A DNA stretch of 63,994 bases, counting the filler, from Jimgerdemannia flammicorona (taxonomy: Eukaryota), in NCBI GenBank assembly GCA_003990765.1. It is 3 parts of 3 records of this genome, joined end to end, with 100 filler letters (N's around TTAATTAATTAA, not from the genome) between each part and the next. Parts side by side here need not be neighbours in the genome. Positions count along the whole stretch, not along the records: positions 1 to 21,540 come from RBNJ01001432.1; 2 more parts are not named here. One strand, given 5' to 3'. Each line of letters opens with the position of its first letter. Positions within the stretch are counted from its first letter, which is position 1. Below are positions 3,151 through 43,275 of the stretch, in pieces. The notes under the pieces were generated by a model. It did not search any database, was not told the origin of the DNA, and worked only from the letters and a program-made list of their open reading frames with translations. The translations under genes and the position numbers were made by a program.

Positions 3151-3179
3151 AGGCGGTCATCATGTTTTACTTCTCTTAT

Positions 3180-5860
3180 ATAGGTTCATAGTACTTCTTG
3201 AGTTTGTTCCTATGTACTGTGGTGGGCAGTATGGTCTCTGAGAGTTTTCTAAGCTAGAAGGTAGTTCCCTTGTTATCTTGCACATAGAAGGGTCCTTCCC
3301 ATTTGAGCTTCAGTTTTCATGACCATAAGGCTTCTACCATATTTTGGTACAGTAGAACCTTTTCTCTAATTCAGATGGGTTCTAGGGTCTTGTGATTCTT
3401 TTCTGCATTCTTTCTTGTCAGTACTTGTGACTTGGTGATATAATCTTCAGCCTTCTTCCTGATTTGATGTAGTCTCTGGATTTCTGCATCAACCCGTCTC
3501 TAAGTTAGGTCTAGATTTGTGGCTGAGGTTCCATCAGAATCTTCTTCTCCAAAGAGTAGCTCTCTTGGGGTAAAATGTGTGCTCTGTGACCGTATGTCTT
3601 GTAGAATAGAGAGGGCAGTTGGGAGATAGTTATCCCAATTCTCATATGTCTCTGAGATCTTTGCTAGGATGTTTTTGAGGGTCTTGTTGGTTCTTTCTGT
3701 CTGTCCATTTCTTTGAGGGTGGTATATAGTGGTCTTGATGTGCTGGATCTTGTATTTCTGATACATTATCTCATAGAATCTATTGACAAATTCCATTCCA
3801 CAGTCTGTTGTGATTTGCTTTAGTGTCTTATAGCAGCAGATGATTTCTCAGTGCAGGAAGTTGGCTATAGAGAGGGCATTGGCTTCTTGTAATACTCCTG
3901 CCTCTATCCATTTGGTGAAGAGGTCTACAATAACTATAATATAGCAGTTTCCTGATAGTGTTACTAATAGTGGTCCAATGATATCCATTGTGATGTGGTG
4001 GAAGGGGATAGGCTTGATTCTTGATGACCCAGGTGCCTGGTCTTGCTAATCTTGTTTCTGTTTTTGGTACTTGTCACACCCTTTGACAAATTGGCACAGG
4101 TCTTCTTCTATCTTGGGCTACCACATGGTTCTTCTTGCCTTGTCATATGTGTTGGTTCCTCCTAAGTGTCCTTGCTCATGTACTTCCTTTATTACTTGAT
4201 ACTTCTTATGTTTGGATATTACCAGCTTTCCTTCTTTTCTGAGTGTAGTGTTGTCTAATTCAAACTGTTTCCAAGTCTGGTTAATGATGGTGATTGTCCA
4301 GAGTTTGAGGTGGTTGGGCATCTTCCACTGCCCAAGATAGCTGATTAATCCATAGTATAGCTCCTTATTCATATTGAATAGTCTTGATGGGGGTGTTTCG
4401 GAGTGTCCTCAAGAGTGCATCAGCATTGGTGTTGATCTTTCCTGAGTAGTGCTTGACAGTACAGTTATACTCTTGCAGCCTGTAGATCCATCTGGCATAT
4501 ATTCCTTTGGGGTTCAGAGTGTGGAATAGCCAGGCAAGAGTGGAATGGTCTGTTTGAATGGTGAAGTATTTCTCAGCTAGATAGTAGTAGAACTTGTCTA
4601 CTGCCCAGACTACTACTAAGCATTCAAGCTTACATAACTCGTAGTTCTGTTCTACTCCATAGGTACCTCGGCTTGCATAGGAGATGACATATTTATGTTT
4701 GTCTTTCTTCTGAGCTAGGACTGCTCCAAGTCCTATAGTACTCGCATCTGTCTGCAGGATGAATTCTAGATTCCAGTCTGGTCTTCTGAGGATGGGTGCT
4801 TGGGTCAACCTGATCTTGAGTTCATTGAAGATTTCTTGGCACTCCTTGGTCTATTCGAATTTGGTCTCCTTCTTCAGTAGCTCATAGATAGGTGCTACAA
4901 TGTTGGAGTATTCTTTGATGAATCTTCTGTAGTAGCTGGCCAGTCCAAGGAAGGTGTGGACTTCTGTGGTTGTTCTGGGTCTCGGGTAGGCTGCAACAGC
5001 CTTAATCTTTATGGGGTCTGTGTAGATTCTGGTCTGATTGATGAGGTGTCCTAGATAGGTGATTTCTTAAGCTGCAAACTTGCATTTCTTGGGCTTGATG
5101 TAGAGGCCATGCTCCTTGAGCCTCTTGAGGGCTAGCTGTATGTGATTGACATATTCCCATACAGTATTGCTGAAGATAATCACATCATCAACATAGACAA
5201 AGAGCCATTTTCCAATCTCATTGCTGAAGACTCTGTTCATTATTTGCTGGAAACTTACTGGGGCATTGCACATTCCAAATAGCATTCGCAGGTAGATATA
5301 GGTGGCATCAGGTATAATGAAGGCTGATTTCTCACTGGTATCTTGAGTGAGACCAATCTGATGGAAGCCTGAGAACAGATCCAAGGTGGTGTAGTATTTA
5401 GCTTTGCTTCCAAGGGTGGTAAGGATTTCTTGAATATTCGGCAAGGGCTGCCTATCCTTCTTGGTGATGGCATTGAGCTTCCTATAGTCAATGCAGAGTC
5501 TTGGTACAAACTCTCCAGACTTGCTTCCTTTCTTCGGGGCTAGGACAATGGGTGAGGCCCAGGGGCTGATAGCTTGCTTGATGATTCTGGCTTCTTCTAT
5601 TTCCTTGAGTTCTGCTTGCAGCCACTCTCTGTAGGCAGATGGTATGGGTCTGGCTTTCTGGTAGATGGGCTTAGTATCACCAGTGTCAACTTCATAGTAG
5701 TACTTGGGTTTTTGATTGTGGATATCTCTGAAGTCCATAGCAAGTACTCCTTCATTCTGGTACAGGATCTTGAGAAGTTGTTTCTCTAGGGGAAAGTTTT
5801 CTCTAATGATATATGTGTGCTTGTTCTGGTCCTTGTCTTTCTTATACTCAAGTTTGGTAA
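3180..5860 (-). pseudogene. pol of element A: RT, RNase H, integrase
   Basis: RT: SPWASPIVL, RLCIDYRKLN, LDLFSGFHQI, YVDD. RNase H: FILQTDAS, IQTDH. Integrase: YHPQRNGQTERTN, WEGPF. Confidence 0.93.
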
Positions 5861-5869
5861 TCTTGGTGG

Positions 5870-6290
5870 TAGTATAGACTCCTCTTCCAGTAGATCCAAA
5901 GCCTTGTTCTCCTCTCTTGGTCTTGATGAGTTCGATGGCTTCTATGATCTTGGGCTTCTTAATTTTGTAGATCAGCATCTGGCCAATCCTGTCATGCTTC
6001 TTGACTTCGAAGGGGGTGGTGTGGTTGTGATTTCTGACTATGAGAAAGATCTTGCTAGTGTAATCAGAGTCAATTACTCCTCCTTCAACTAAGATTTCAC
6101 TTTTGGCCAGACTGCTCCTGGTCTTGATAATTCTGGCATGGTTTTCTAGTAACTTGACTCCAATTCCAGTGCCAAGTAGAGTGGTGGTCTGTGGTTCAAG
6201 GGTAGCATCTTGAATGCTGGCAAGGTCCATTCCTATGGCTCCTTCAGTCTTGTATTCTGGGATCTTGACTTTGGGGTGTCTGATTCTTGT
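5870..6290 (-). pseudogene. dUTPase domain between protease and RT (element A)
   Basis: dUTPase motifs GMDL, RSSLA, GGVIDSDY, DRIGQM, RGEQGFGSTG, in frame with RT. Confidence 0.92.
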
Positions 6291-6637
6291 TCCTCCTCAT
6301 CATTGCTATTAGCTTGAAGCTCTGGGGGCTGGTCATCTTCTTTGGCTTTCCTTTTTGCTTTGGTAGCTTCTTGCTCATATTTCTGTTGGCAGATTTTCCT
6401 GACTTCACTGATACAGGACTAGCAGTTATTTAGGTGTTCGGAGCAGTACATCCTAGTACCATGGGAGCATCTTCCTTGAGGGGCATAGCCATCGATGATC
6501 TTATTGTACCACTGCTCATCTGTGAGCTTGGGTGTCTTGCTTTTGTTCTTATTCACTGAGTGTATGAAGACCTCTGTGTCTTCTTCATCTCCTTCCTTTA
6601 TGTCTGGTAGGACTTCTTTGTAGACATTGATAGAGAC

Positions 6638-7000
6638 TCATACCTTTCTTCCTCTGTAGTTGATCTGTATCTTCTGGGCATTGAGGTCAATGATGGCCTT
6701 GGCCTTGTAAAGCCATTGGTTGCTAATGAGGATGTCATAGTTGGTGGTGCTTGTAACAATCACATCTATTGGGATGATGGCTCCTCCTATCTTGATGGGG
6801 ACTTTTTGGATTTTACCAAGGGGGGTAGCTTGTGTACTGTCTGCTGTGACATAGACCATCTTGGTGGACTCTTCAATATCCCAACCTAGGCAGTCAATTG
6901 TCTTCTTGCTCATGAGGTATCCTCCAGCGCCAGTATCAATGATAGCATCAAAGATACAGTCTTCGATCTGGCAGAAGGTATAGGCTGATGTCTTGTGCTG
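6638..7000 (-). pseudogene. Retroviral-type aspartic protease (element A)
   Basis: AIIDTGA catalytic motif and YDILI(S/G)NQWL. Confidence 0.88.
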
Positions 7001-7325
7001 GTCTTTGGATTCTTCACCTGAGTTCTTGGATTCTTCCTGTGCATTGTGAGCTTCTACAATCTTGTACTCTTGATTCTTGGTAGTAGTTGCAAGTCCTACT
7101 CTCAACTACTGTCTGAAGGCAGGGACTTCAGCTAGCTGTCCAAAAGTGGCATTGACCTTCTGTTTCTTGGGGTCCTTATAGATGTCATACTGGTGGATCT
7201 TGGTCTTGCACAGCTTCTGTTCCTTCTTGCTTTCGCTTTCTCCTGAGACTGGAGTAGTGCCTTCTATGATTTGGTGGACAGCTTCATCTAACTCCATATC
7301 TTGATCAATCTCCTTGGGTTGAGTT

Positions 7326-8370
7326 TTACTTTGAATAGTGATAGCTAGGGGTCTTCTTTGGTCTTCCAACTGGCTTGCTATTGCTCTTCTTGTCATAGAG
7401 CTTGGACCGGGTTCTGGTACCTTCAGTAGCAGGGTAGAATTTAAGCTCCTCATAGTATTCTTCATCATCAGTATCACCAATCTCCTTGATGACTACTGCA
7501 TTGGTTTGTTCTCTGGTTCTGCTAACATTGCTTGATTGGGCTTTGCATCTTGTTTCAGTCATGCAACTCTTTACATAGTGGCCTTCTTCTCCACATCTGA
7601 AGTATGTGATATTGCATTCTTCTATAACAGCTGCAAATCTCTGCACTAGTCTCCTGTTGGTGCTTCGGGCTTCTCTAACAACATCACCAAGGTGTGCAGT
7701 CATCTCGGCAAACTACTTGGCAAGTTCCTCCACTGGGTCAGCTTTGGCTGTCTTGGGGGTAGGTGGGGCTGGTTGTCTGTTTACGACTGTGGCAGGTAAG
7801 ATACTAGTTGGCTTTGATGGCTCCATCTTGATGTCAGTTATTTTCTCCATTGAGTGTTTGGCAGGGTGTCTGGCAGTCCAATATCTCTGTACAAAGACCA
7901 CTTTCTGATCAAGGGTCAGTGCAGCTGGGGTAGACTGGATTGCTAGGGCAATTTCAGGGTGAACTCCTTTGAGGAAGGTTGAATCCACTATTTGTTCCTT
8001 GAGGCAGTCATTATAGCTAGTCAAGACAATCTGGTGGCAAATTTGGGTATAGAATGAGTTGAGATCTTCACTAAGTCCCTAGCAGATAGTGTTGAGTTGA
8101 TCCTTGAGAGCTTGCTTGATCTCTTTGGTATAATATGTTGTTCTGAGAAAGACCTTCATGTTGGTAAGTTTGGCTGCACCAGCATCAGCAATGGTAGTTG
8201 CATTGAACTTATCTCTGGTAGGTCCTCTGAGGCTGACTGGTAGAAGGGCCAATTGAGTATCTACACCAAGGGCTCATATGGCAGCGAATTGTTCAAAGTC
8301 TTCAATGAAGGTCAGGATTGACTCTTCAGTAGTATATCTATAGAATGTGGGAGGATGCATTTCCATCTTG
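7326..8370 (-). pseudogene. gag of element A
   Basis: PPTFY-type gag start near 8350; decayed zinc knuckle YFRCGEEGHYVKSC; position directly after the PBS. Confidence 0.75.
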
Positions 8371-8467
8371 TCTTGAATTCTTGTAGGGGTGACTCTTGTA
8401 GTCAGGGTAGTTATTGTGGGGGTTGTTCATTTTTCAGCTTGAAAGTGAGGGATTCGTCTTGAATCAC

Positions 8468-8483
8468 CAGCCAATAGACACCA
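8468..8483 (-). promoter_or_regulatory. Primer-binding site of element A (TGGTGTC...; priming tRNA not identified)
   Basis: TGG-initiated motif 3 nt inside the 5' LTR. Confidence 0.65.
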
Positions 8484-8486
8484 AGT

Positions 8487-10003
8487 TATCACATAGTGGT
8501 CGCTGAGTCCTTCAAATATGCCAGATTCTCTTCAAGGTGTATCTCTTAGACTAACTCAAGTTTGTTATAAGCAAGTTCTTATTGGAGTGCCTTTCTAAGG
8601 TCTTATAGTCCTCAAACTTCTTATCTTTAACTATCTTGTTATCTCTTAGATGGCTTGCAAGGAAAGTGTGTATAAATGAAACCGGAACTGACTTTATTTT
8701 AGAGGAAATAAGAGGGGTATTTATACAAAATATAATTCAATGGTTACTAAGATATAAAGCTAAATATAAATTCCAATAACTAAAACTACCAAGTTCCAGG
8801 GCTGGCATTATTTAGTATCACATCAAAATACTGGTACTGGAACAATTTCGCATCACCTCAGAATACCAGTGCTGGCATTATCCAGTATTACATGAGAATA
8901 CCAGTGCTGGCATTATCCAGTATAACAAAGAACTTAGAGCAGAAAGTTCAGGATTATGGGGGCTTTATCATCATCATTATTGAAGGAGATGAGATCTGCG
9001 AATTCGTCATATAGATCATGCGTTTTGCATACTTCGCATGCTTCAGGTATATCATGCGGGATGATGTCATCGATGACATCATCACGTTCAGTTGTGGCAG
9101 GGAAATTGGGAACAAGATCTGGAGCTCTCCAGTCTATGAGGTTCTCTTCCACAAAATAAGGAACAAATGTGGGGTCTTGGGGAGGTCTAACCTGGATGCT
9201 TGGGCCTTGGAATACTGAGATCAATCCTTGCAGAAATTGGTCTGAGTTGTCCTGAAGGATAGGATACCAGAAGTCTTCTACTTCTTCGCTGTTGAGGGTG
9301 ATAGTGGACTGGGCTTCTGTAGTCACCCTGGCTTCTAGCGCATTGATATGGCGGGATGACAGATCTCTGAAGTCTGAGACTCTAACATACTTCAAGTTGG
9401 GGATTGACCATGGTACATGTCTGAAGATCTGATGGATTTTCTTAGCTGTCCTCATTTTGTATATATCCATGAGAGTGGCATCTTATAGCTCTTGGGTGCT
9501 GGCCTGTAGGAACTTCCAGCAGAGAAGGTTTCCTATTTCGTACTCCTGCCACATTTGGAGGCATTCGGTGGTAATGGTGATCCTTGTTTCCATTTCACAG
9601 CGGTAGAGGATAAAGTGATAGGAGTCTGCAGTACCCAGGTTGATACTAGGAGTCCTTCTTGAGCAGGTCCTCATGGCTCTTCTGATGTCTTGGAATATCC
9701 TTTCTTCAACTGAGATATCTTGGTGGTTCCTTGACCTTGAGGTTTAGCAGGCAGTAGGTATTTTGTTTGTAATAAGTCTTTGAGCTATTTTGGGATTGGT
9801 GGTTCTTGTTGGTTGCTGCTACTGTGGTTCCTTGATCCTTCTTTTATATTCTTCAGAATGCTTGTGCTGTGGTCACAATGACTCACAGTTGGTCATCATT
9901 GCTCATCTTGTATGCTGTATGATCTTCTTATGCTCTGATCTAGTGGCTTGCAAGGAAAGGCTGTCTCCTGTGCTGATGTCATTATTCTGGGGTCACCATT
10001 ACA
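8487..10003 (-). repeat. 5' LTR of element A
   Basis: Direct repeat of 1298-2812, followed by the TSD CTAG. Confidence 0.93.
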
Positions 10004-10839
10004 CTAGATAGTATTTAATATAGTGGTAGAAATATTTTATAATTTAAAAAATATTTATTAAAAATAATTCAGTAAATAATATTTAATAATAAATATTATA
10101 TATAATATATACATATTATCTCTTTTAATTTATTTAGATATTTGACTTTTATAAACTCAACTTACTAATATAAATATATTTTTATGTATTCTTTATAAAT
10201 GTCTTTATTTTCAATATTTGACCAGGTTTAGTTTGGGTTTTGGGTTCATTTAAGGGCAAGTGAGATTTTTGCCACCGTGATTTTGGAATTCCATGATATC
10301 ATATTGCTATCTAGTGACGTTTACTTTTAAGATGGGACTGTTGATTTCGCGACATGTCAAACATACTTTTCGTGGCGCAAACTTGTTAGGAATGTTGTGA
10401 TCTTTTCTGAAATAGGTCGAATGACGTAAGTTACATAATCGACGTGTAATACACGAGGTTCCGGCCACCAGGGTTTATTGTAGTATTAAAAAATTGGTTA
10501 CATTTTCAATTCTCTCAACCCAGAACATAGTTTAATGTTTAATGTATGATATGTTCAAAAGAACAATGTCCGAATAACAGCTATGTATACGCATACGATT
10601 ATAACGAGAATTTGAACTCGTCACTCGTGCAGGTAACACACGCTCGTACTTAGATAAACATGCTTACTACAAGAGGGAATCATGTGAGGTTTGGAAGTTG
10701 AAAAGGGTTAACAGTCGCCATTTTCAGGAAATGTTGAAGGACCTGCTGCGGAGTTCCGGGGTAAATAAGGACCTTGCGAAAATGATTTTCTCTTCTGCGA
10801 ATTCTTCTCTCGATTACAGTATATACCTCTACATCTTAT

Positions 10840-12824
10840 ACTGTCCTCCTCTGAACTTCCAACCCCTTCGCTTGACGAAATCAAGACATGGGATAAAAAG
10901 AACGTCTATGAACACTCAGCATCCCGCACTCAGATTCAAACCCGAACATACGACAGTCTTGCGGGATAAGGAAGTGGACGGAAACGCTCTCCTGCTGACT
11001 GAAAAAGCCCTATTAGAGCCTCCGTTTAATTTAAAAGGCGGTCTTTTGATCAAAATTATGGGTGAGATTTCTCGATTACATGCTACGGCAACAACTGTCA
11101 AATTCGTACCCTAAGTAACGGTTATATAAAGGATATTCAGGAATTCATTATCGAGTAAACGATTTCGCCAAAGATTATGAATACATTCGAAGTTTGGTGT
11201 CCTCATTGATGGCAAATTGAAATATCTTTTGTATCTGGCATAGAGATCGGCGTCGATCAGCAAACATCTATGAAAGGTTCAAAAATTTTCTTAATATAAT
11301 ATTTATTGTCACAACACATAATCTGTTGTCTGGAATTTGAAATAATTTCTGCCCATAATTATATGTAATAGCCAGCGGCCGCAGTCCAGCCGAAACCAGA
11401 ATCAAGAAGACTGAGGCCAAAATCGATCGTATGACTCAAAAGGTCGAATCGCCAACTGATGAGAAGGAGAAAGATCAATCTCGTAAACCACGAACGGAAC
11501 TTTATGAAACGAAGTGCAACCTTTCCGATATTGAGAAAGAGCAACTCCGAGGTAGGTGGAATATGCGGCTATATTGTGCAATCATTCGAGAAATGGGATT
11601 TCGGGGGATGGCAGAGTGATTTAATTTTTAATATTAATACATTCTCATCCCACATTATGCGTGGTACAAAAGGGATAAAGAATAACAACGAAGACTTAAG
11701 TATCGGCAAGAGAGATATCCTCAGCAGCCTCGAAAAACTTCACCGCAAGGTTAAAAAACTGCCCAAGCTTTTGCTCCATCTACATGAGGATACAGTCCCG
11801 CGACTATTTTACATTTTTCCCGAGGATGGTGATTGGTGCGGGCCATCGACTGAAAACTTCTTCACCAAAACTTTCCGTCTACACTTTCTATGCGAGCACG
11901 AAACAATCCATAACGGTAGGATAAAAAAACAATTCCACCTGACGGATCATGCCGGCTACCTTTTGGAACGGCCACGCGAGGTATGTTATTACGATATTCG
12001 AATGACACGCACTCCTGTTATCACAATACTGATGCTAATTTTTCTGCTTTACTCATCTTTGCATTAATGTATTTCAGTTTTTAATAAAATATGGAAAGTA
12101 CATTCATATGGTATGTTGTCTGTTTGGAAGCGTGTCAGCAGAGGTCTATACGCAGATTGAAAACACTTTGAAGGCGGTTGGGGACGAGCTCGAGGATACT
12201 GAGATTCTGCCGCGAAGAAAGCCGGGTCTGATGGAAAGACCTGATCTACGAGAACTTCAAGGTGGAGCAATGCATTGCCTTTCTTGTTCATGTGCGCACG
12301 TGCCAATTTTGATACAGTCATGGTAATGACAATATAAATATATATATATATTATTTTAATTTCTGCTTATAGGCTATCTTGAGCGCTTTGATAAAGCCAA
12401 CCGACTTGGGAATTTGCAGCGCGTGCTCCGTCGGGGAGAAAATGGTAGCACTACTATGGGGTGGGTCTGCCGGCATCATGCCTGGGAATGGGATACGCCA
12501 AACGCCGTTCTGAGTCTTTATACAGCCATCACGAGCAGTTCCGACTTTGACTGCGTTACGTTTGATGACAAAACTTGGGAGCTGACGTTCGTATTACCAT
12601 CTGACCTATATTATTCATTGTATGTCTTTCATATCAATGTTATATTTTTATTCAAGCCTTTATTTATTTTAACACCAGGATCCAGAACTTATCAAAGGAT
12701 TCTCTGCATACCCTGCGAAATTCGGTGGCGCGTGAACTGTCTTGCGTCCCTTTGAGGAAAATCAGGTATTTGGTTGATTATACTTGTCTAGAATGAACAA
12801 TTCATCTAGAATTACTAATGAATG

Positions 12825-12898
<74 letters not shown>

Positions 12899-15459
12899 AT
12901 AGTATTGGGCATTGTGATAAGCCTATTCCTGAAGATGTGGAAGCTTTGATTAATTCCGCGACCACTATTGAGACCCTTGAGTAAGTATGTCAAATTTATT
13001 TGATGAAATAGATAAAGTAAATGCTAATATATATTACTATTGATATGCTTATCTAGTCTAAATGGAATGATGAACATGTGGTGCAAAAATATTTCTTTTT
13101 TTTTTTTTTTTTTTTTTTTTTTGTTTGATGAGTCATTACCTACAATAATATGTTCTAATGAAACCAACCTTTTTCCTGTCTGTAGCATTCGAAATATTGT
13201 TCAGACCTGTCTTCAACTAAGAGAAATCAATTTTTCTGGCATGTTATAACAACTTAAATATCTCCATTCATTCATATTTGATATTATTATCCATGAAAGC
13301 CTAACTGTCAGTTGTGTATGCCATTGTCATGCGTTTCTAGGCAGTATTATTGACCATAAAGAAATCGTCACACTAGCCGAAGTCCTTAAAGCGAGCACGA
13401 GCTTGCAAAGGCTGTCACTGGAAAGTATGTTGGGCGAAGCACGGCATATTTATGCACTCATCTGATTGTTGTCCCCACTGGCAACCATGCTCATGGATTT
13501 TATTGTACCTCTGTAGACAGTGGTATTGGTGAGATGGGAGCCAGCGTACTCGCCGAAGCGGTAAAAACGAACACGAACCTGCGAAACCTGAATCTATCCT
13601 GTGCGTAGAAATAAGCGCATTATATTTTCGCATTTATTTCTCTGAGGAACGTGCGTGTACATTATATATGTTCCTCTTTAGGCAATCGTATCGGCGAGAA
13701 TGGAGCTAAGGCACTAGCCGTAGCTTTGAAAGAGAACAGGTGCCTGCAAAACCTGAATCTATACGGTATGTAGAAATGAAGCACATTATATTTTTACATT
13801 TACCAGAACAGTGTTCTAGCTGTTGACCATTTTATTTGTTCCAATGTAGGCAATTGTATTGTCGAGATGGGAGCCAGTAAACTAGCCGAAGCGCTGGAAA
13901 TGAATGCGAACCTGGAAACCCTGAATCTTCAAAGTATGTAATTAGGAAAAAATTAATTGCGCTGTTTGATGCTCTAACTGCGTACATGTTATGTGATTCA
14001 CTGTAGACAATGGTATTGCCGAGAACGGAGCCAGTGCTCTAGCAGAAGCTCTGAAAAAGAATAAGAGCCTGCAAACCTTGAATCTACACAGTACGTAGAA
14101 ATGCATTATATTTTGTATTCATCTCCATAGTGTTCTAACTGTATACATTTTGTGTGCTCCGCTGTAGGCAATGTTATAGGCGGGAAAGGAACCAAGGCAC
14201 TAGCCGAAGCACTGAAAATGAACAAGAGCCTGCAAAAGCTGGATCTATATGGTATACAGAAACAAATTTCCATATTTTTATCATTCATCTGTATGTTATT
14301 CTAGCTGAAAATTACGTTTATATATTTTATGTGTTCCCCCGCAGGCAATGTCATTGGCAAAGAGGGAGCCGAAGCACTAGCCGAAGCACTCAAAAAGAAC
14401 ACGAGCCTGCAAAAACTGAATCTACATGGTATATAGGAATGAATGAAATACATTGTATTTCGGCATACCTCTCTTTAATGTGACAGCTGCAAATAACGCC
14501 CATACATTTTATCTATTCTTCCATAGGCAATGGTATTGGCGCGAATGAAGCCTGTGTAATAGCCGAAGGACTGAAAATTAACACTACCTTAAAAGAACTC
14601 TTTCTTGCGTGTAAGCATGGATAAGGGCATTACATATTTACAAAAATCACCTTAGTGTTCTAGTTGATATCCATGCGTAAATATTTCTTGTGCTCCTCTC
14701 TAGGCAATGACATTCACGCCGATGGAGCCAGAGCACTAGCCGAAGCACTGGAAACGAATATGAGCCTGAAAACCTTGGATCTATATGGTATGCAAAATAA
14801 AGTGCATTCTTTTTGTACAGTATTCAAGCTGACAATCGCATGTGTACATTTTAATTGATCCTCTGTAGGTAATTGCATTGGCGATGAGGGAGCCATAGTA
14901 TTAGCTGAAGCATTGAAAAAGAAAACGAACCTGGAAAACCTGTATCTCTCCAGTATGTAGGAATGGAGTGGATTGTTTTTAGATTCCTCTGTTTATTGCT
15001 CAAGCTGACAACTATGTGGATCCATTATATGTGATCCTCTGTAGACAATGGTATTGGTGAGATGGGAGCGAGGGCACTAGCCAAAGCGCTCACAAAGAAC
15101 ATTGGCCTGCAAAAACTGGGTTTATGTAGTAAGTGGGAATGAATTTTGGCATTCATCTTTTTAGTGTTCTAGCTGATAACTCACGCGAACGTTTTATTTG
15201 ATCCTCGGTAGGCAATGATATTGGCGAGAAGGGAGCCCAAAAATTAGCCAATTCACTAAAAAGGAACATGAGCCTGAAAAACCTGAGTGTACAAAGTACG
15301 AAAAATGAAGCGCATTTATCTCTTTAGCATTCCAGCTGATAACCATGTGTGCACATTTTGTCTTCTTCTGCAGAGAGTGATATTGGAAGGATGGGAGCCC
15401 TCGCTCTGGACGAAGCGCGGGAAGTTAACCCGTACCTCAAACTTTCTTGGCCCAAGTAG
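10840..15459 (+). CDS. Multi-exon gene: SAM-like domain + COR/TORNADO1-C-like domain + RI-type (NLRC3-like) leucine-rich repeats; 5' part possibly disrupted
   Basis: SAM-like motif (EIKTWDKKNV / EVDGNALLLTEKALL...KIMGEISRL). Central motifs VPRLFYIFP...FRLHFLCEH...HLTDHAGY, RLGNLQRV, WVCRHH. LRR consensus NxIGxxGAxALAEALKxNxSLQxLxL in GT-AG exons. Stop TAG at 15457-15459; start uncertain; region CpG-rich. Confidence 0.8.
13341..15295 (+). repeat. Array of twelve 84-nt phase-1 exons, each one 28-aa LRR, with homologous introns
   Basis: Exons 13341-13424, 13517-13600, 13682-13765, 13850-13933, 14007-14090, 14168-14251, 14345-14428, 14527-14610, 14704-14787, 14869-14952, 15045-15128, 15212-15295, all bounded by AG|...|GT. 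Last exon begins at 15374. Confidence 0.93.
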
Positions 15460-15959
15460 AAATGGATGGAGCATCTTATGTTTTTTCATCCGTCTGACCC
15501 GCTTTCACCTAACAGCAATTCGTATATATTTTATGTATCAATTATATTTTATACCGGCGGGAAAATTGTGGAACGGGCAACCTATTATGGCAGATATCTT
15601 TATATAACAGTATTGCCGATCCTTAAAAACAGATGGTACCATGAGAGCCATCACAGCTCATTCGAAAAAGACATCCAGACCCTGATGAAATTTAAGGGGG
15701 AAAAAGGTCGATGACTCCAATCGCCGAATACTTATCCGTTAAAAAGATAAAATTAAGTAATATAGTTATGAACATAGTTCAAACTTCGGCAAAGTGGCCG
15801 AGCCACGGACATTCATGCTGTTGCGCAAATTAGTTTCCTCTCAACCTAAGCATCTTAAGATAGCATAAGTCTCATTTATGCCAGTTTTGCCCCATTGCAA
15901 TTTAAATGCTAGCACCAGTTTCATTTCGCATCCATTCAATTTAAACTTTTAGTTTAGTA

Positions 15960-17530
15960 TCTGTCTCAGAGTAGTACTGCACAGTTACCTATATATGTCA
16001 CTTGCCCTGCTGGATCTATCTACATCCAAGTTGGGTGCTTTGCCAGTTAAGCTGTAGCAATTGTAATCCTTTTCTGTATACAATATCATACCCCCTATCC
16101 ATCAGTCACACAGAGCCCCTCCAGCACTTTCCATGCTCAAATACTCTCAAACACCTCTGCCTGGGCCTCTTCTGATTCCTGATCTACTGAACCTACACAC
16201 TCTCTGCAAAGACCAATTGAGCACCCTTTGCTGCAATTATGACTTACTAATGGATGGTCTAAAAGAAGCCTAATTACATATCTTAACACCAACTATCCAG
16301 ATTCAGTTCCTCTATCAGAAGGACAGAATGCTCTTATTGAGTATCTTCTCCTAATGCTAGCTATATGGTTGGCAATACTGAGTTTAGCTACACTTAGTCC
16401 AGTATCCTCTGCCCTAGCTATACCTATTCTAGTAGTACTTCTATTACTTCTCCAACTATCACCAGCTCTACCAATTATTATCAGACTATTAGTAGAGCTG
16501 CTGTATCTCACAATTCCCTTACTACTACTATATATAACTGACTCTTTCCAGTAGTGAGTCTATTCCTTTATTTATTTCTGATACTATATTAAGATGAGAC
16601 TAGATATCTCCCAACTTCCTGATATTGCTGAAGGCAGAGAAGTATTAAATTCTAGCTGAATGGACTGATTTAGCTCTTATTTCACATTCTGACAATCAGA
16701 AGAAACTTAAAAATACATATCTTACTGACCACAACCTTGATCTACCTCTCTGGCCCAAAGCTATCTTCAATATTTAGATTATACTTCTAGCTTTAAGCTC
16801 TTTTTGCATTACTATATATATCTTATATATATCTGAGCTTCTGGTATATATTCTCTTTATTATTAAGGCTATTAATGATTAGTATAATTAGGTAGTACTT
16901 CAGTGTTTTAATAAACAGATTTATCTGTTAAAAGTATCCTTTGTAGATCTTAACATTGGTAACCCAGAGGTCATCTACCAGATCTTCAAAATAATTATTA
17001 ATTAACCATTATTAGTACCTCTTATCTACTAGCCTATTCATCATATCTCTCTTCTCAATCTACTGGCCCACACCTCAGATATCTCTAAGGCCACTCAGTC
17101 ATATAATTTCTTATGCTTTTAATGTGAGATATAGGAATATTTATCTATTTCCTATATCCAGACCTCTCTTCTATAACCTATATTTGCTCAAAAGCTAGAT
17201 AACCAGCTCTACTCCAACAGTATAGCTAGCTCAGTTTGTCATATATATAATGAGATAAGATATTTCTATAACTCATACAGTCAAGCTCATGTCTGTTTCT
17301 TCTGTTATGGTCCACATACAGATCTGGTATACTCTACTCACTATAGCTAATCTTGTAATTCTAGTAAAATCCTCTGCTCCTCTCATTAAATATCATATAG
17401 CAACAAGCTCTTTACACCCATCCCAATCAACCATTAGTTCAGTTCTACCTAGTAGGCCTCTATCATAGTTACTTTCATTAGCAACTACTTCTATTCTGAG
17501 TTATATATTGATCCCTTATCTGATAATCCA
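15960..17530 (+). mobile_element. Degenerate DIRS/Ngaro-like retrotransposon gag remnant
   Basis: CpG-depleted block between CpG-rich islands. Decayed VCHIYN...AHVCFFCYGPH near 17235-17320 resembles the Cys/His C-terminus of tyrosine-recombinase retroelement Gag. Confidence 0.45.
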
Positions 17531-17545
17531 ACTACTCGCAAGAAT

Positions 17546-18137
17546 ATGATAGAAAAAACCGTCACTGCGAAAACGGCTGCCTCGCCCTTAACTGCTGCAG
17601 CTGCAAAGTCCCGTGGGGCTTCAAAGGTGAACTCAGCTGTAAGAATTTTTTTCATCAATTTGTGTTGCTAGTTTATGTTCCACCCCTCTCTCACGATTTC
17701 GCCTCATCCATAACATCTAAAAAAATCCCGCACAACAAATCTGACTGATAAAGAAGGCTGCCACGGCCAGGTCCGTCTCGTACCCAAAGAAACCTGGTGT
17801 CCGAGATACTAAGCCAGTGGAGGACGAGAAGCATGCTCCGACCAAGGCCACTACCACATCTTCGAGGCAGCCCTTTACACCAACGCCTGTCACGGTTGTC
17901 GGAATCAAATCAGAGTGCATTGCCATCGTTGTAGAGGCAGAGCGCAGCACGTCTGACTCGTCATCGCATTATTAATTCACAAACTTCGCAAATACCTCTT
18001 CAGATAGGCATCTCCACCCCACTTTTCCGCTGCAATCGAAGGGCCTGAGGTCAAAATCACCCTCGCGCATCCCCATCAAGCAGTCAACCAGCATTAATAC
18101 GAACAAGAGAACGTTGCCACCCACGCCACGTTGCTGA
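17546..18137 (+). CDS. Small spliced Lys/Thr/Pro/Ala-rich low-complexity protein, or 3' fragment of a gene
   Basis: MIEKTVTAKTAASP...SK, then GT..AG, KAATARSVSYPKKPG..., then GT..AG, ...RSKSPSRIPIKQ...PPTPRC*. CpG-rich; splice sites inferred. Confidence 0.4.
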
Positions 18138-21100
18138 CTCAATTCCTCAAATTGTAAAGTGATGTGACAATAACGACTGAGGGTTTATTTTGTGATGAAC
18201 GTCTAGAGTCATGACATCTTAAAGAGCGAGGTTTAGTTATGCGATTCATTTTGATAGCTGTTCGCTCCGAAATAACGATAGAAAAAATAAATACGAAAGA
18301 CTCACACGCTTCGAAAACATGCGAGCAGCGAAAACGAGAATAAAAGAGGACACATGTTAATCAGGATACCTCCATATTGTTATATTAACCCTGTATTTAT
18401 TGTTTGAAAAATTTTCATTCCAGACACCGGAATGACGATTATATTATATGGCAAATACAACATAACCACACATAGTGAAATTTCGTAAGAAGAGAATGAA
18501 ACAGGAGGTATGTGGCAAAGCTATAAATTACCCTGCTTCTTTATTGCCATAAACCGACAAAACACCAGACGCGATAAGTCCAATGTATGCGCAATCAGAT
18601 GGATAGAGCGAATAAACCAGTTCAATTCCCAATGTGAAAAAGGACTCACCACGAGGCTCTTCCTAGCAACTCGAACTTGAATAACACATTTCGCTCCAAA
18701 GTCTTGCATTTGCACTCAGAAGAAGTCTCAGAACTTGAACTGGATTGCACTTAGTTCCTCTGATACTTCGCTGTGAACACTTTTTTAAGTTCCCCCGAAA
18801 ACAAGCCACCGATTGTGTCTGATCGGGGTGCACATGACAATCGGTTCGACTCGAAAAGGACGGACCCGACGAGCCGGCGAGCATGACTCACAAACATGCA
18901 AAATATCCTCGTCAACAGTGACAACCCCAAAGAAGACAAGGTTTCCGGCTCCAATGATGAACTCCTCCTTCCCCCGCACTTCACAAATTATTGTAGGCTT
19001 GCCGTCTATATTTTTCGAAAAGAATATATTTCACTTGCCACAAAATCGTAACTGCTCTTCCTCGAATGCTTGGTTTCAAAGGAAGAATGAATTATAAATG
19101 GCCGAAATTGCTTTGGTTTGACCTCAAAGGGATATATTGGTTATGGGACTTTGCGTATATTCTATGATATGCATAATGGTAATGGTAACCCATTTTCCTA
19201 GCGATTTTTGACAGATACCATAGGTGCCGAGGCGCAGATTTGTTCCAGAATATTCGAAATAGTTTGATTGTTCAAGAAATTTCAAACGAGGATGTTGGTA
19301 ATGGGTGTCCCGGGCTACGCCAGTTCTATGTGATGCACTAATGTTAGGTGTTCCTGGAGCGCGTTATACCACGTTGTCCCAACGCACTTGAGTAATAATG
19401 AGTTCGATAATGCAAAAATAATTTGTGAAAGACGTTTCTGATGAAATGTCGATTAATCAATAAGCATACATCAATGGTAGATATATTTGACTTTGCGCCT
19501 GTACCTAAGTTTACTTTACATCCATTTCATTATCTCCAATAAGACAGTAATTACTCCCTAAGCAGGTCAGTAGAAACTGCTAGAAAATTTTCATGCATAC
19601 CTTGCCGGCACTCAGGACAACCACCTGCTACTGAATATCGTACAAATCACCCTCGCCGATATTGATACATACTACACGTCACCATGTCCACCATCTCCCA
19701 ACTCAGCCCATTAAATCCTCCGACCTATGCTTTATGGTGTGGCGCATTTTCTACAAATCGCAAAACCACGTGGCAAATCAAATTTACCGCTGCACTAGAC
19801 AACCGATTATGCAAGAATCATTACTGCTAAATACATGACATACACACGCGGCGAGTGACAGTCGCCACCTCTACGCCAAAGTCTACAACAAATTTAAAGT
19901 TCTGGCCAACAGTTCAAAAATCGACAAACCACGGCGGTCACTACCCGCCACCCGAATCTGCCTAGACCTCATACTTTTTGCTCTCTCTGCATCACACGCT
20001 GAATCCACACCTACCAATTCAGTTCTCAATGTCCTGTTTGTCTTTGACGACGCTCAAGGCAGAATTTGCGAGGCCCTTGACATCTTCCCCATAGACCCTT
20101 TTATCTTCATCCTTCACATCACCACCAACGACCGGCACGTTACCCTCTCGCCACCACCCCTCTTCCCTTCGGGCTCCATTGTTATCCTTGGAACCAACCG
20201 ATGACCCCTTCCCCCGGCGTAGCCTCCTCCTGAGCTTCAATAGATGTTCTTCGCCCAGCTCCACCAGGAACCCCTCGTATACATCGTGCTATTGGAAAAT
20301 TCCAGTCGCGTTTCACGCGACGTCCGCCCAGGTAGGCGGTCATAGTGGACGTCGCAGGTGTTGTGGAAGCGGAAGTGGCGGGTCTTGCGGTGAGATGGAA
20401 GCGCGCCAAGTTTGCAATCATCGCAATGGGAAAGTGCAACCAATTTTCACGTCCAAATCTGCGGTATATACCTGCATTTCCTCGCCGTCCTTTTTCTGCC
20501 CCCTTCCCAACCCGGTAAATTTGCTCGTCGAGTAAACGTGGAATGGTCGATGACCTGTCGCGATGGACAATAGAACAGATGTGCCTTTAAGGTTCTTGTC
20601 GATATTCTTTGGTACATTTGTTGATATATTTTTGCAGTTTATAATATATACTTCCAAAATAGTGGGCTAATTTATTCCCGTTCCACAAAATTCTGGAAAT
20701 TTCCCATGGTCATCCTGTGGATTCAATGTCTTAATCTTCACTCTATGCTTTTCCCAAAGATAGGTATTACGGGATGATCCGGGATATGTCACATTTGCGG
20801 GAGTCCGAGCACAAAAATCCCATTCTTGGTGCTTGTCGGTCGAGCATTTCCAATGCTTTCGCAACCGGGTGGCTAAAGGTTACCCCGAGATTGGATATTT
20901 TTAAATCGACCGTTTTGGGTTTTGTTTGTGGCAGAGCTTTTTTGTAGGGTTTGTTTGTGGTGACTTCGTGGCAAAGTTTTTTTGTGGGCTTCACTTGTGG
21001 GGGAGCTTCATTTGTGTGGACTTTACGGCTGGATTTTTTTGTGCCCTTGTTCGCGACTGAGTTTTTTGTGGCCTTTGTTCGAACACAGGGTTCGTGGCGA

Positions 21101-21540: not shown

Positions 21541-21640
21541 NNNNNNNNNNNNNNNNNNNNNNNNNNNNNNNNNNNNNNNNNNNNTTAATTAATTAANNNN
21601 NNNNNNNNNNNNNNNNNNNNNNNNNNNNNNNNNNNNNNNN
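21541..21640. other. Assembly gap / contig spacer
   Basis: N44-TTAATTAATTAA-N44; the spacer has stops in all six frames. Confidence 0.97.
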
Positions 21641-23635
21641 GGCTTGGGGGGAAGTATGAGGGGCCTGCTGGTGGGGGGCCATAGTAGAGGAGGGGGCGGG
21701 GCTAGAGGTCAAGGGTCTGGCAGGGTGAGCTTTGTGGAAAAGGTGAAGGGGGGTCGACAGAGAGCTGGACTGGAGAGGTGGCTGAGAGGGGGGAAGGTAT
21801 TGGTGGCAGCTTCCAGACAGCAATCTCTTGGGGGTACCTCTCTAGCGGGCCATAGGAGTAGAGCTGGGGGGGTAGCGGCTGGGATGGGGACTGCTGATGG
21901 GGGTATGATGGGTGATCTGGAAAAAAAATCTAGATGGGACTGCTGATGGGAGTGTGATGGGTGATCTGGAAAAAAAATCTAGATGGGACTGCTGATGGTG
22001 AGCCAAGCGGTGGGAAGGGCACGAGGCCCGAGGACCTGGCGGATGGTGTAACAGGACTGGTGGTGGCTCTGTTACTCAAGAAGTCGATCTCGGTATTCAC
22101 AGTCATGCTGTGCTTCCGGGGCTTAGCAGTGACAGCAAAAATGGTATTGGGGCTTATTGCTAAGCAGGTGGTAGGAGCGGCTTCAGTGAAGTTTCTGAAG
22201 GGACTGGAGGGGGTGGAGGTGGGATTTGAGGAGGTTGAACTGCTGGAGGAAGTGCTGAAGGTTGGGTTGGTGGTTGGGGAGGTGTGTGTTCTGATGGCGA
22301 GGTGTCTGAAATGGGATCTGAGGGTGGTCCAACTGCTGGTGAAAGGAGTACCCATGGTGATGGCGATGGAGATGAGGAAGAGAGTGGAGGATGTTATGGC
22401 GGAGTATGGAGAGGTAGTGGATATCAGATTCAGGGTCTGGGAAGGGACCACGCTCAGGACTGGAGATGTAGATGTGAGGATTCGGCTGGCTGGGAAAGAG
22501 GCTACTGGGAAGACGAGGGACTGGCCTTTGGTGTTGGTCTGGGGAGCTTTCCTGTACAAGGTGATGTGGGTGAAAGGAAGTAAAGAAGAGGAGGAAGATT
22601 TATTGGAAGCACTGGAGGAGCTGGATGGGGCTGTGGAATGGCAAGCTAAGGCCTGGAAGACTTTCAAGGAGTTGATGCTCCTGGAGGTGGTGGATGGAAA
22701 GAGGATTTGAGTGAACAAGGTACAGTGGGAAAGAGCTCAGGGGTGGAAGAGGCAGAAGGATCTGCTGGCTAAGCTGGGGAGTGGACTACAGAAGGATGCG
22801 AGCATGAAGATGGATGCAGAAGGGGCCGGAGCGAGTGTCTGGGCTGGTGAGAGAAGTGGGAATGATGGGACAAAGTCAGGGAAGGCTAAGGAGGCAAAGA
22901 TTAGCGACCTATATGCTGACGGTATCTTGGAGGTTTGGGATGAAGACTGGGAGAATTCCCCCACCCCTTCCCTTCTTATCAGGCATGGCCTGGCTTCCAG
23001 GAACAAGTCTGGGGAGGATGTGACGATGCTGGGGACCCAGCAGGTGAAATTTAGCGTTCTGGAGGTATTGGATGGAGACCGAGTAGTGGTGGCAGGGGAG
23101 GAGGAACTGGTGGATGTCCCGGAGGTGTGGGATGAGGATGCAAGTGTGGGAGCTGACACCACGATGCTGGATGGAGGGAGGCTGGCGACCCCTGGTGGAA
23201 AGGAGGTGGGGAACCTACTTTGGATGTGTTGGATGATGAATAACCTGGTGGCAGAAGAGCTGGGGGAGGTGGACTTGTGTGGGATGGGTGACAAGCACTA
23301 GATGAGAATTTTACAGGGGGAAGGAGTGGCAATGGCGCTGAAGGCGGAAATTCTCGTGGTATATCTGGAGGAGGAAGGGTATGAGGTGGATAAGGAGAGG
23401 GAGGCGGAGTTGGTGGTGGTCACTGGGGAGAAGGCTGAGTACTGTTGGAACAGACGGCATGGGTTGTAGCTTTGGCAGGAGACTTGTATCGAGTACCAAG
23501 AGGAGTTTGAGGAGAAGGCTGATAAGGAGATGAATGAGCTGTTGGCTGGACTGGAGGCTCAGAGGGCTGAAGAAGAGGAGGTGATGGCTGAACATAATCT
23601 GGACATGGTGTAGGAGGAGAGAGACATAGAGTAGT
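21641..23635 (+). pseudogene. LINE ORF1 (RRM-like) with a ~50-bp internal tandem duplication at 21883-21998
   Basis: LLVKGVP...VMAEYGEVVDI...TLRTGD resembles the RRM of Tx1 ORF1; acidic, coiled-coil-like C-terminus. Confidence 0.65.
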
Positions 23636-23667
23636 AGGGATTAATTGCAAACAAACCATATTTTACT

Positions 23668-43175: not shown

Positions 43176-43275
43176 NNNNNNNNNNNNNNNNNNNNNNNNN
43201 NNNNNNNNNNNNNNNNNNNTTAATTAATTAANNNNNNNNNNNNNNNNNNNNNNNNNNNNNNNNNNNNNNNNNNNN
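43176..43275. other. Assembly gap / contig spacer
   Basis: N44-TTAATTAATTAA-N44. Confidence 0.97.

Follow-up and report, generated by a model that had tools for sequence, protein, structure and literature searches.

The LRR array described here is probably an ordinary germline-encoded C-terminal domain of a single protein, a sensor module that arose by ancient tandem duplication, and the reading of it as a diversifying receptor is currently unsupported. The array lies in a stretch of 63,994 nt from Jimgerdemannia flammicorona, referred to throughout as the window, where it makes up the C-terminal domain of an intact forward-strand gene with about 19 exons (~11504-15459). The exon layout itself is already known from animal immune receptors and is found here in an early-diverging fungus.

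Positions 13341-15295 consist of twelve 84-nt segments bounded by AG and GT, each in phase 1/1 (2 nt, 27 codons, and 1 nt) and none with an internal stop (Table 1). Each of these cassette exons encodes one 28-residue LRR of the ribonuclease-inhibitor (RI) type (Pfam LRR_6 class), and the codons split across the exon borders specify, in order, N, C, G, N, S, G, G, C, G, N, S, and K. An nhmmer profile of the twelve exons, run over both strands of the window, returned 13 matches, namely the twelve cassettes (E 7e-16 to 4e-22) and the last exon; no spare, relic, or reverse-strand cassettes were detected by this search in the introns or flanks. Tandem Repeats Finder did not report the array. When the 91 ordered junctions among the upstream exon, the 12 cassettes, and the last exon were enumerated, 89 were open, and a stop (TAG) arose at only two, where exon 2 or exon 8 is joined to the last exon. 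A sequence-only reading of the window had described the twelve phase 1/1 LRR exons exactly so, split codons included, and had rightly stated that any cassette can be skipped in frame, all being phase 1/1, that the junction codon is built combinatorially from two exons, and that exons 2 and 8 would create TAG if spliced to the last. It had also noted variable residues at exon ends; these residues fall there simply because of the position of the intron within the repeat.

Table 1. Features of the gene in the window, in order of position.
Feature	Coordinates	Strand	Evidence and remarks
First modelled coding exon	11504..11980	+	Candidate ATG 11504; putative 5' end
Middle-domain exon 2	12078..12261	+	Phase 0 to phase 1; open frame in model
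Middle-domain exon 3	12373..12619	+	Gene model; aligned to relatives; motifs LGNLxR, WVCxHH
Irregular LRR/cap exon (87 nt)	12679-12765	+	Predicted by splice-site and frame model
Irregular LRR/cap exon (78 nt)	12903-12980	+	Predicted by splice-site and frame model
Irregular LRR/cap exon (53 nt)	13186-13238	+	Predicted by splice-site and frame model
Cassette exon 1	13341..13424	+	nhmmer; exact RNA contig X1 record 5
Twelve homologous introns	within 13425..15373	+	73-98 nt, all GT..AG
Cassette exon 2 (ends in T)	13517..13600	+	nhmmer; X2 record 9
Cassette exon 3	13682..13765	+	nhmmer
Cassette exon 4	13850..13933	+	nhmmer; X2 record 9
Cassette exon 5	14007..14090	+	nhmmer; X2 record 11
Cassette exon 6	14168..14251	+	nhmmer
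Cassette exon 7	14345..14428	+	nhmmer; LRR_6 E=0.0031, below gathering score
Cassette exon 8 (ends in T)	14527..14610	+	nhmmer; X1 record 7
Cassette exon 9	14704..14787	+	nhmmer
Cassette exon 10	14869..14952	+	nhmmer; X1 record 7, X2 record 12
Cassette exon 11	15045..15128	+	nhmmer; X2 record 12
Cassette exon 12	15212..15295	+	nhmmer; X2 record 12
Terminal exon (86 nt)	15374..15459	+	Degenerate 13th repeat/C-terminal cap; TAG 15457-15459; nhmmer E=5e-06

RI-type LRRs are tandem repeats of 28-29 aa with the framework LxxLxLxxNxI..G...L...L..N. The period of the array is exactly 28 codons and the RI-type (RNI-like) framework is present, with I4, A13, L22, and L25 invariant in the 11 regular units and N2, G8, A9, L12, L16, N19, and L27 conserved in 10 of the 11. 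In a Pfam scan of five single exons (27 aa each), exon 7 (Table 1) and exon 3 (E=0.48) matched LRR_6, both below the gathering score, and the scan returned nothing for exons 1, 2, and the last; the LRR_6 model straddles the intron. The spliced model shares 44-50% identity over 225-319 aa with the LRR regions of relatives, which match LRR_6 at E 1e-29 to 4e-62. For one of these relatives, P0031, the best PDB matches are RI-like proteins, NOD2 (5irl/5irm), and ribonuclease inhibitor, and the solved structures closest to its LRR region also include LRRC34, DRC5, RanGAP1, RI-like ciliary proteins, and NLRPs. By its single-exon matches and its homology to these relatives, the array of the window gene is a predicted RI-type LRR domain.

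The introns of the array (92, 81, 84, 73, 77, 93, 98, 93, 81, 92, 83, and 78 nt, in order) align end to end with a mean column identity of 66%. Their mean pairwise global score is 20.3, as opposed to 3.7 +/- 4.2 (maximum 16) for interior-shuffled introns; three upstream stretches of the gene, taken as controls, score -2.9 to 4.0, two of them being model introns and the third lying 7-8 nt off the final model intron. Intron motifs quoted in the sequence-only reading are visible in the alignment, and the donor sites vary (GTATGT, GTGCGT, GTATAC, GTATAT, GTAAGC, and GTACGA). Since the twelve introns are homologous, the unit that was duplicated comprised exon and intron together, as that reading had held.

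These units are old and equidistant. Pairwise identity among the twelve cassette exons ranges from 52 to 80%, with no pair above 80% and exon 1 the most divergent (52-65% nt identity to the others), and pS between cassettes is about 0.38-0.40, with values from 0.33 to 0.41. Similarity does not decay with the distance between cassettes and shows no neighbour or period effect, giving a star-like pattern, and the exon and intron similarity matrices are uncorrelated (Mantel r 0.02-0.26, p 0.14-0.44). A higher-order periodicity, considered for the N/C/G and N/S/G pattern of the split codons, was ruled out, similarity being independent of distance. When repeats were compared within the gene, a comparison near saturation, dN/dS was 0.12 at the 11 framework codons. 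The same near-saturated comparison, which cannot reveal positive selection, gave 1.15 at the 6 concave-face codons vs. 1.21 at the 11 helix/loop codons, and thus no excess variability on the concave face over helix/loop positions within the gene. Values near 1 outside the framework are compatible with relaxed or diversifying evolution.

Upstream of the cassettes, the gene encodes a conserved Cys/His-rich middle domain without a Pfam name, inside which the 682-aa gene model begins. The first modelled exon encodes the first part of this domain, with the motifs PRLFxIFPED and RLxFLCEHE; positions 11663-11980 share 64% identity with Endogone proteins, tblastn aligns relatives in the frame of this exon from ~11525 onward, and exact RNA contigs (records 3 and 4) lie over 11756-11978. 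The second exon extends the homology to relative P0001 past a 'PRE' motif, and the intron at 12262-12372 is skipped in paralogue transcript contigs. The 189 nt that precede cassette exon 1 in X1 record 5 equal 53+78+58 nt, an indirect RNA match to the irregular LRR/cap exons, and the intron after the last of these (13239-13340) is putatively GC-AG. The introns between the three exons contain poly(A)72 and poly(T)35 tracts, and an LTR retroelement occupies ~1369-9900, upstream of the gene region. An upstream ORF (10605-11114) that appeared SAM-like by eye had neither a Pfam SAM match nor a homologue and was excluded from the gene model. Pfam returned no NACHT or NB-ARC match at E<=1 in any upstream ORF from 10605 to 12755, and no Roc/COR match.

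In the middle domain, positions 11663-11980 match 210 representative clusters at E<=1e-3, and no Pfam match to the domain was found among the family members scanned. The best named relatives of the domain come from Endogone sp. (64% identity) and Mortierellaceae, which makes a fungal origin of the gene, as proposed by the sequence-only reading, the most likely one. Of 117 relatives scanned, 18 carry LRR_6, 3 a protein kinase domain, and one each Sel1/TPR and NACHT; the last is the putative gene model of a Mortierella relative (P0099), in which NACHT (E 4e-07) lies upstream of the shared module and which alone combines NACHT with LRR_6. The LRR regions of relatives span about 290 to 500 aa and differ in repeat number. 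Mortierellaceae relatives with LRR_6 include P0031, P0065, P0083, P0112, and P0117. A metagenome scan with the middle domain yielded 49 loci, all but 6 of them from one metagenome with intronless genes, and tandem arrays of paralogues were seen in one metagenome. RI-type LRRs were absent downstream of the middle domain at all 49 loci, a 27-aa repeat HMM found 0 metagenome loci with at least 3 repeat matches (domE<=0.01), and tblastn alignments of the gene model to these loci end at about residue 274. The two closest loci (L001 and L005) are too short or cut off. Nine long metagenome ORFs gave nothing at the Pfam gathering score and only weak coiled-coil, LRR-like, and other matches. From these data, we infer a large Mucoromycota family in which interchangeable repeat or kinase modules accompany the middle domain.

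AF2 models of the middle domain reached pLDDT 79.9 (340 aa) and 69.6 (250 aa). Foldseek found nothing in the PDB at E<=0.001, and a profile search of that database found no match with E under 0.1. A wide structure comparison returned only coiled coils for the N-terminal helix (Z<=7.3) and, for the core, alignments over 48 residues at Z<=5.3; Atlas had no usable match for P0001. These negative searches do not establish a new fold.

The gene is expressed as RNA, with its cassettes spliced in genomic order in the contigs listed. The transcript data are assembled contigs from two public runs, presumptively RNA, and rare isoforms are lost in such assembly; the rows listed comprise 16 of 435 pieces and 15 of 52 joints. 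X2 record 12 joins 14868-14952, 15045-15128, and 15212-15296 without gaps (exons 10-11-12), exons 2 and 4 are spaced by exactly one 84-nt exon in X2 record 9, and X1 record 7 (696 nt) leaves room for a single exon between exons 8 and 10, in a register that fits exons 5-13. Among these 16 pieces and 15 joints, the exact-match contigs show only consecutive junctions and no skipped joint. Contigs running unspliced across introns 2 and 4 exist (records 6 and 10), with intron 2 kept in X1 record 6. At several joints of high depth, exon-6/7-like sequence runs into exon-9/11/12-like sequence, with a likeness below 95%, sides of 19-40 nt, and extra letters at the joint; these joints are read here as paralogues, and could alternatively reflect another cassette order or content in close paralogues. 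The RNA runs also contain many contigs at 90-99% identity, a sign that paralogues are present in this organism.

In the sequence-only reading, the array was thought to diversify by splicing or by recombination, and this part is so far unsupported: inclusion is ordered in the exact-match contigs listed, the units are old and equidistant, neither spare nor relic cassettes were found, and dN/dS is no higher on the concave face. Taken on its own, isoform diversity through regulated or stochastic cassette skipping would allow any subset of exons 2-12 to be omitted, producing solenoids of varied length with new junction residues that could tune or diversify binding, or switch activity. The same exon design precedes real alternative splicing in human NLRP3, as the available text of Hoss et al. 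(2019, PMC6642158) has it, and the symmetric cassettes, the near-complete set of open junctions, the variable donor sites, and the incomplete splicing at intron 2 are all consistent with skipping. However, symmetric phase follows automatically from exon+intron duplication and does not need selection, and the exact-match contigs listed (records 7, 9, and 12) all fit consecutive inclusion, with no skipped joint among them, so that this explanation appears quite improbable. Germline exon shuffling or unequal recombination among paralogues is unlikely as well, despite the precedent of the Ectocarpus ROCO genes in the accessible portions of PMC3341825 and PMC11378527. It would use the homologous introns as recombination substrates by which cassettes are moved, added, or deleted, leading to a fast-evolving non-self repertoire, and it draws on intron homology throughout the array, on a family that is large and partly tandem in related organisms, on the variable repeat number of relatives, and on the many near-identical paralogue contigs, some with the unusual joints described above. 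Against this, all cassettes are at most 80% identical and star-like in similarity, and the inactivated or reverse-strand LRR exons that are a hallmark of Ectocarpus loci are lacking in introns and flanks; the unusual joints themselves have short sides and low likeness, and the mapping tool flags such joints as unreliable in repeats.

Many RI-type LRR proteins, such as RanGAP, LRRC34, and the axonemal DRC5, are scaffolds without a role in recognition. The window gene could likewise encode a housekeeping or regulatory scaffold whose cassette structure is a historical by-product, given that the LRR region of P0031 lies close to such proteins, besides NOD2 and NLRPs, and that the window gene lacks a NACHT or NB-ARC match. 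This is nevertheless improbable, as the family is lineage-restricted, highly expanded, and partly tandem, and its C-terminal modules are swapped (LRR_6, Sel1/TPR, and kinase, with NACHT in one relative), a pattern typical of conflict or surveillance families and unlike that of single-copy housekeeping genes.

VLR-like somatic assembly starts from an incomplete germline gene flanked by banks of LRR cassettes that lack splice sites; here, the gene is complete, all 12 introns have canonical GT..AG borders, and the 64-kb window contains no further cassettes. NLR and STAND receptors are defined by a central NACHT or NB-ARC NTPase domain, which the window gene does not have. The term 'receptor', used in the sequence-only reading, therefore stands in part: it is favoured by a family domain combined with LRR_6, Sel1/TPR, kinase, and once with NACHT, and disfavoured by the lack of NACHT/NB-ARC in the gene itself. 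Its exon border and phase are, we assume, identical to those of human NOD/NLRC genes. In the available text of Hoss et al. (2019, PMC6642158), human NOD/NLRC genes have frame-preserving 84-nt (28-aa) LRR exons, in line with the statement of the sequence-only reading on animal NLRs. The window gene shows the same modularity, with one 28-aa RI-class LRR per 84-nt exon, all frame-preserving, and the border at a constant repeat position at the beta-strand (between LxLxx and N). It differs in its fungal host, in having no NACHT, in its upstream middle domain of no known family, in its short introns (still recognisably homologous), and in that only consecutive junctions are found among its exact-match contigs listed. 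The same source describes RNH1 and NLRP genes, in which 171-nt exons encode 28+29-aa repeat pairs; they too have RI-class LRRs, frame-preserving exons, and a domain grown by exon duplication, but their unit is a pair of alternating A/B repeats whereas that of the window gene is a single 28-aa repeat.

For Ectocarpus ROCO genes, the accessible part of Zambounis et al. (2012, PMC3341825) describes one LRR per exon and proposes exon shuffling, as the sequence-only reading likewise stated, and a 2024 follow-up on these LRR exon arrays is available in part (PMC11378527). As presented there, the likeness lies in each LRR occupying its own short exon of constant length in a candidate immune receptor from a multigene family. 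The ROCO exons are of 72 nt (24 aa), encode plant-specific/typical LRRs, and accompany a ROC-COR GTPase, whereas the window gene has 84-nt RI-type exons and no ROC-COR; the Ectocarpus introns contain LRR exons that are relics or lie on the reverse strand, and exons both recently shuffled and positively selected are reported there, whereas the window gene has no relics and only old, equidistant units. Fungal NLR-like STAND proteins combine NACHT or NB-ARC with ANK, TPR, or WD repeats, and LRR motifs were not found among them according to the available portion of Dyrka et al. (2014, PMC4986451). They resemble the present family, to the extent described, in their modular, interchangeable superstructure-forming repeats, their large variable families, and their possible role in non-self surveillance; unlike them, the window gene has LRRs and no NOD domain. 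Literature searches on Endogonales and Mucoromycota brought up no specific account of LRR exon arrays or LRR families, and those on 84 bp phase 1 LRR exons found NLRP3 reviews only.

On the preferred reading, of an ordinary germline-encoded domain, a unit of one 84-nt exon and one ~85-nt phase-1 intron would have undergone ancient tandem duplication, probably by unequal crossing-over. Drift of the copies would have followed, with the framework (N2, I4, G8, A9, L12, A13, L16, N19, L22, L25, and L27) under purifying selection and with non-framework positions and introns diverging at roughly the rate of synonymous sites. Both the symmetric 1/1 phase and the split codon would derive from the unit that founded the array; with them, a repeat can be gained, lost, or skipped without a shift of frame, but in themselves they are not a diversity device. 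The predicted product is an RI-type LRR solenoid in which ~3 irregular N-terminal repeats precede 12 regular ones and a degenerate 13th repeat or cap, the whole joined to the Cys/His-rich middle domain. Because the middle domain is combined with interchangeable modules across the family, the LRR would most likely be a ligand- or partner-binding sensor module in a cytosolic signalling or surveillance protein, and repertoire diversity would arise through expansion of the gene family over evolutionary time.

The locus, with its 12 cassettes in 2.1 kb, is tractable for the study of splice- or recombination-based LRR diversification. There is a slim chance that it represents a large Mucoromycota family of intracellular RI-type LRR sensors whose cassettes diversify binding surfaces by stochastic skipping or by recombination or exchange among paralogues. 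The NOD-LRR architecture has been regarded as lost in fungi; if this proposal for the family were true, NACHT in the Mortierella relative would be a case of its survival, and the 84-nt phase-1 LRR exon would be common to a fungus and to animal NOD/NLRC genes. If instead the plain reading holds, the array would be a clean textbook example of how a domain grows when exon and intron are duplicated together in tandem, and the animal NOD/NLRC design of one 28-aa RI-type LRR per frame-preserving exon would also occur in a fungus. Its members having LRR, Sel1/TPR, or kinase modules, and NACHT in a single gene model, the middle-domain family is relevant to the view of fungal NLR-like proteins as lacking LRRs.

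The twelve cassettes of the window gene, single-LRR exons of exactly 84 nt with AG before and GT after, were read within 12000-17000 and then parsed by script, and they matched to the base the sequence-only reading of twelve such exons, all in phase 1/1 (2 nt, 27 open codons and 1 nt). Taken in order with the terminal exon, they form one open frame closed by TAG. The split codons at the cassette borders (N, C, G, N, S, G, G, C, G, N, S, K) were obtained as the same series, and it is true, as had been noticed, that splicing exon 2 or exon 8 to the last exon creates TAG, these being the sole stop-creating junctions (2 of 91 ordered junctions of the upstream exon, twelve cassettes and last exon). 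The cassette-array observation is real and precise, and an origin of the array by chance is excluded. A 12-cassette profile, searched over the whole window on both strands, gave 13 matches, namely the twelve cassettes and the terminal exon, with no spare cassettes outside the annotated exons; Tandem Repeats Finder, run on the window, did not report the array.

Exons of the window gene and how each was delimited
Feature	Position	Strand	Basis
Middle-domain exons	11673-11980, 12078-12261, 12373-12619	+	splice and frame model
Irregular LRR/cap exons	12679-12765, 12903-12980, 13186-13238	+	splice and frame model
Cassette array, regular LRRs	13341-15295	+	twelve 84-nt exons
Cassette exon starts	13341, 13517, 13682, 13850, 14007, 14168, 14345, 14527, 14704, 14869, 15045, 15212	+	script parse
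Terminal exon (86 nt, TAG at end)	15374-15459	+	script parse

The splice and frame model of the gene is an open frame of 682 codons. Relatives align in the same reading frame already at about 11525, and the ATG at 11504, likewise in frame, is a candidate start. The only model that preserves the frame would give the intron before cassette 1 (13239-13340) GC-AG borders, with GCATGT as the donor, and this putative intron has indirect RNA support from one transcript contig (X1 record 5). A perfect poly(A) of 72 nt (12825-12896) and a poly(T) of 35 nt (13092-13126) lie within modelled introns among the irregular LRR exons. An ORF upstream (10605-11114, plus strand), with an exact transcript contig over 10864-11009 and high-depth paralogue contigs, had neither a Pfam family nor a homologue, and may belong to the LRR gene as its 5' part or be a gene of its own. 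An LTR retrotransposon of the Ty3/gypsy type lies at about 1369-9900 on the minus strand, upstream of the region with the LRR gene; it encodes an aspartyl protease, a dUTPase fused to reverse transcriptase, and RNase H, and its LTR pieces, at 1369-1772 and at 8559-8963, share 94-99% identity. Elsewhere, a GC-richer block (22001-28000; 0.48-0.53) with strong positive GC skew of up to +0.50 contains a reverse-transcriptase fragment (25516-26370), and a minus-strand ORF (44917-45459) encodes a GH20 beta-hexosaminidase N-terminal domain (Pfam Glycohydro_20b2, E 2.6e-14) and has relatives with hexosaminidase annotation. Two identical pairs of 44-N runs with 12 bases between (21541-21640 and 43176-43275, 21.6 kb apart) are probably masked or gap stretches.

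In codon register, each cassette is one 28-residue repeat in which I4, A13, L22 and L25 are invariant and N2, G8, A9, L12, L16, N19 and L27 nearly so. From this motif and the script-level homology of the spliced model to the LRR regions of relatives (44-50% identity over 225-319 aa), the repeats are predicted to belong to the ribonuclease-inhibitor (RI, Pfam LRR_6) class. Relatives aligned to the window LRRs score LRR_6 down to E 4e-62, and the best PDB matches of one relative, P0031, are to RI-like proteins, LRRC34, DRC5, NOD2, ribonuclease inhibitor, RanGAP1 and NLRPs; LRR_6 was found in two of five single cassette-region exons, weakly (E 0.0031 and 0.48), because the Pfam model straddles the intron. 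Since the intron splits a codon between LxLx and N of the repeat, beta-strand positions 23, 24, 26, 28, 1 and 3 fall at exon ends. The variable LxLxx residues are thus located where the sequence-only reading placed them, but this is geometry and not evidence of design, and helix/loop positions 6, 7, 10, 18, 20 and 21 are equally variable. The excess variation sought at concave-face sites did not appear, with dN/dS across the repeats of the window gene being 1.15 for the concave face, 1.21 for helix/loop and 0.12 for the framework.

The twelve cassette introns (73-98 nt, all GT..AG) align along their full length with a mean column identity of 66%, and their mean pairwise global score of 20.3 exceeds both that with shuffled interiors (3.7 +/- 4.2) and those of three control stretches further upstream in the gene (-2.9 to 4.0), of which two are introns of the model and one is offset relative to the final model intron. 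This bears out the proposal that the exon+intron unit was duplicated. The copies are old, with 52-80% identity among exon pairs, a synonymous difference pS of 0.33-0.41 and an intron identity of about 62%. Within the array, no decay of similarity with distance, no super-period of 2 or 3 units and no correlation between the similarity matrix of the exons and that of the introns (Mantel r 0.02-0.26, p 0.14-0.44) were found, and the history is either a star-like burst long ago or a record erased by saturation. The pattern is not one of ongoing shuffling inside the gene, and recombination-based diversity of the cassettes, for which there is no positive support, is unlikely.

Splicing was followed in assembled contigs from two public runs of one organism (X1 and X2), compared over 10200-15900; contigs lose rare variants, and the joints reported are among the matches listed. 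Exact-match contigs join exons 10, 11 and 12 exactly (X2 record 12) and space exons 2 and 4 by exactly one 84-nt exon (X2 record 9), while X1 record 7 (696 nt) has exons 8 and 10 separated by the length of one exon and a total length in register with exons 5-13. As exact-match contigs join cassettes in order, the introns between cassettes are real and RNA makes up at least part of the material. There are also contigs in which introns 2 and 4 are unspliced; X1 record 6 (13568-13763) keeps intron 2 (81 nt), with an in-frame TAG two codons in and a remaining 61 nt not on the adjoining genome sequence, and points to incomplete splicing rather than to contaminating DNA. Most contigs (223 of 234 in X1, 81 of 99 in X2) have a likeness under 99%, which indicates many expressed paralogues, and joints of exon-6/7-like to exon-9/11/12-like sequence, with short sides, extra letters and likeness below 95%, were read as paralogues and not as skipped isoforms. 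Splice-based diversity, likewise without positive support, is unlikely, and so is a scaffold role without recognition. The non-self recognition diversity put forward by the sequence-only reading, by splicing or recombination, therefore found no positive support, the copies being old and the exact-match contigs listed in genomic order. The best-supported mechanism, which we hold to be moderately probable, is that the LRR domain is ordinary and constitutively spliced and would have grown long ago through tandem duplication of the exon+intron unit.

Cassette phase and intron position are presumably identical to those of human NOD/NLRC LRR exons. According to Hoss et al. (2019; PMC6642158), human NOD/NLRC genes mostly have one 28-aa LRR per exon, in agreement with the 84-nt exons that the sequence-only reading named for animal NLRs, and human LRR exons are strictly frame-preserving with borders at a constant place in the beta-sheet, a design termed a precondition for alternative splicing, which was demonstrated for NLRP3; the window gene shows exactly this design and a common exon logic. 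The sequence-only reading was also correct on LRR exon shuffling in Ectocarpus ROCO genes: Zambounis et al. (2012; PMC3341825) describe 72-nt single-LRR exons there, at loci whose introns contain relic exons and which show positive selection and recent shuffling, whereas none of these last three was seen in the window gene. Among fungal NLRs, Dyrka et al. (2014; PMC4986451) found no LRRs, and a 2025 Sordariales study (PMC12258605) reports NACHT proteins of the NAIP-like type from a Mortierellales species and states that HEAT repeats are the sole partners of this NACHT type in fungi. Without a NOD domain, the window gene is not an NLR; NACHT, NB-ARC and Roc/COR gave no Pfam match upstream. A relative of 2010 aa from Mortierella sp. 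GBA30 (P0099) carries ARM_5, NACHT (E 4e-07), the middle domain and LRR_6, and aligns with the window model along 695 aa; its predicted architecture is NOD-LRR, a type absent from the fungal proteins of Dyrka et al. (2014), although fusion of two genes in the model may account for it.

The middle domain, which is encoded upstream of the LRR exons and has conserved Cys/His/Glu positions, links the gene to a wider family. Its piece at 11663-11980 (106 aa) is 64% identical to Endogone sp. proteins and has matches in 210 representative clusters (E<=1e-3); 17 of 20 clusters looked up had organism names, 16 being Mortierellaceae in the broad sense, with the Endogone pair counted apart, and these relatives support a Mucoromycota fungus as the source. 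AF2 models (pLDDT 79.9 and 69.6) had no convincing structural neighbour. Pfam named LRR_6 in 18 of 117 relatives, a protein kinase in three (P0076, P0090, P0077), Sel1/TPR in one (P0148), other LRR types weakly in two and nothing in most, and the Sel1/TPR and kinase cases suggest a module that swaps partner domains. Of 49 metagenome loci with the middle domain, 43 come from one soil metagenome, where the genes are intronless, encode 700-1400 aa, have no C-terminal domain named by Pfam, and are often tandem (four copies in L036 at 4999-19903; three in L015, L025 and L028); several metagenomic fragments stop right after a PRE motif, which is an intron site in the window gene. The window gene is a member of an expanded, modular and probably sensor-like Mucoromycota family.
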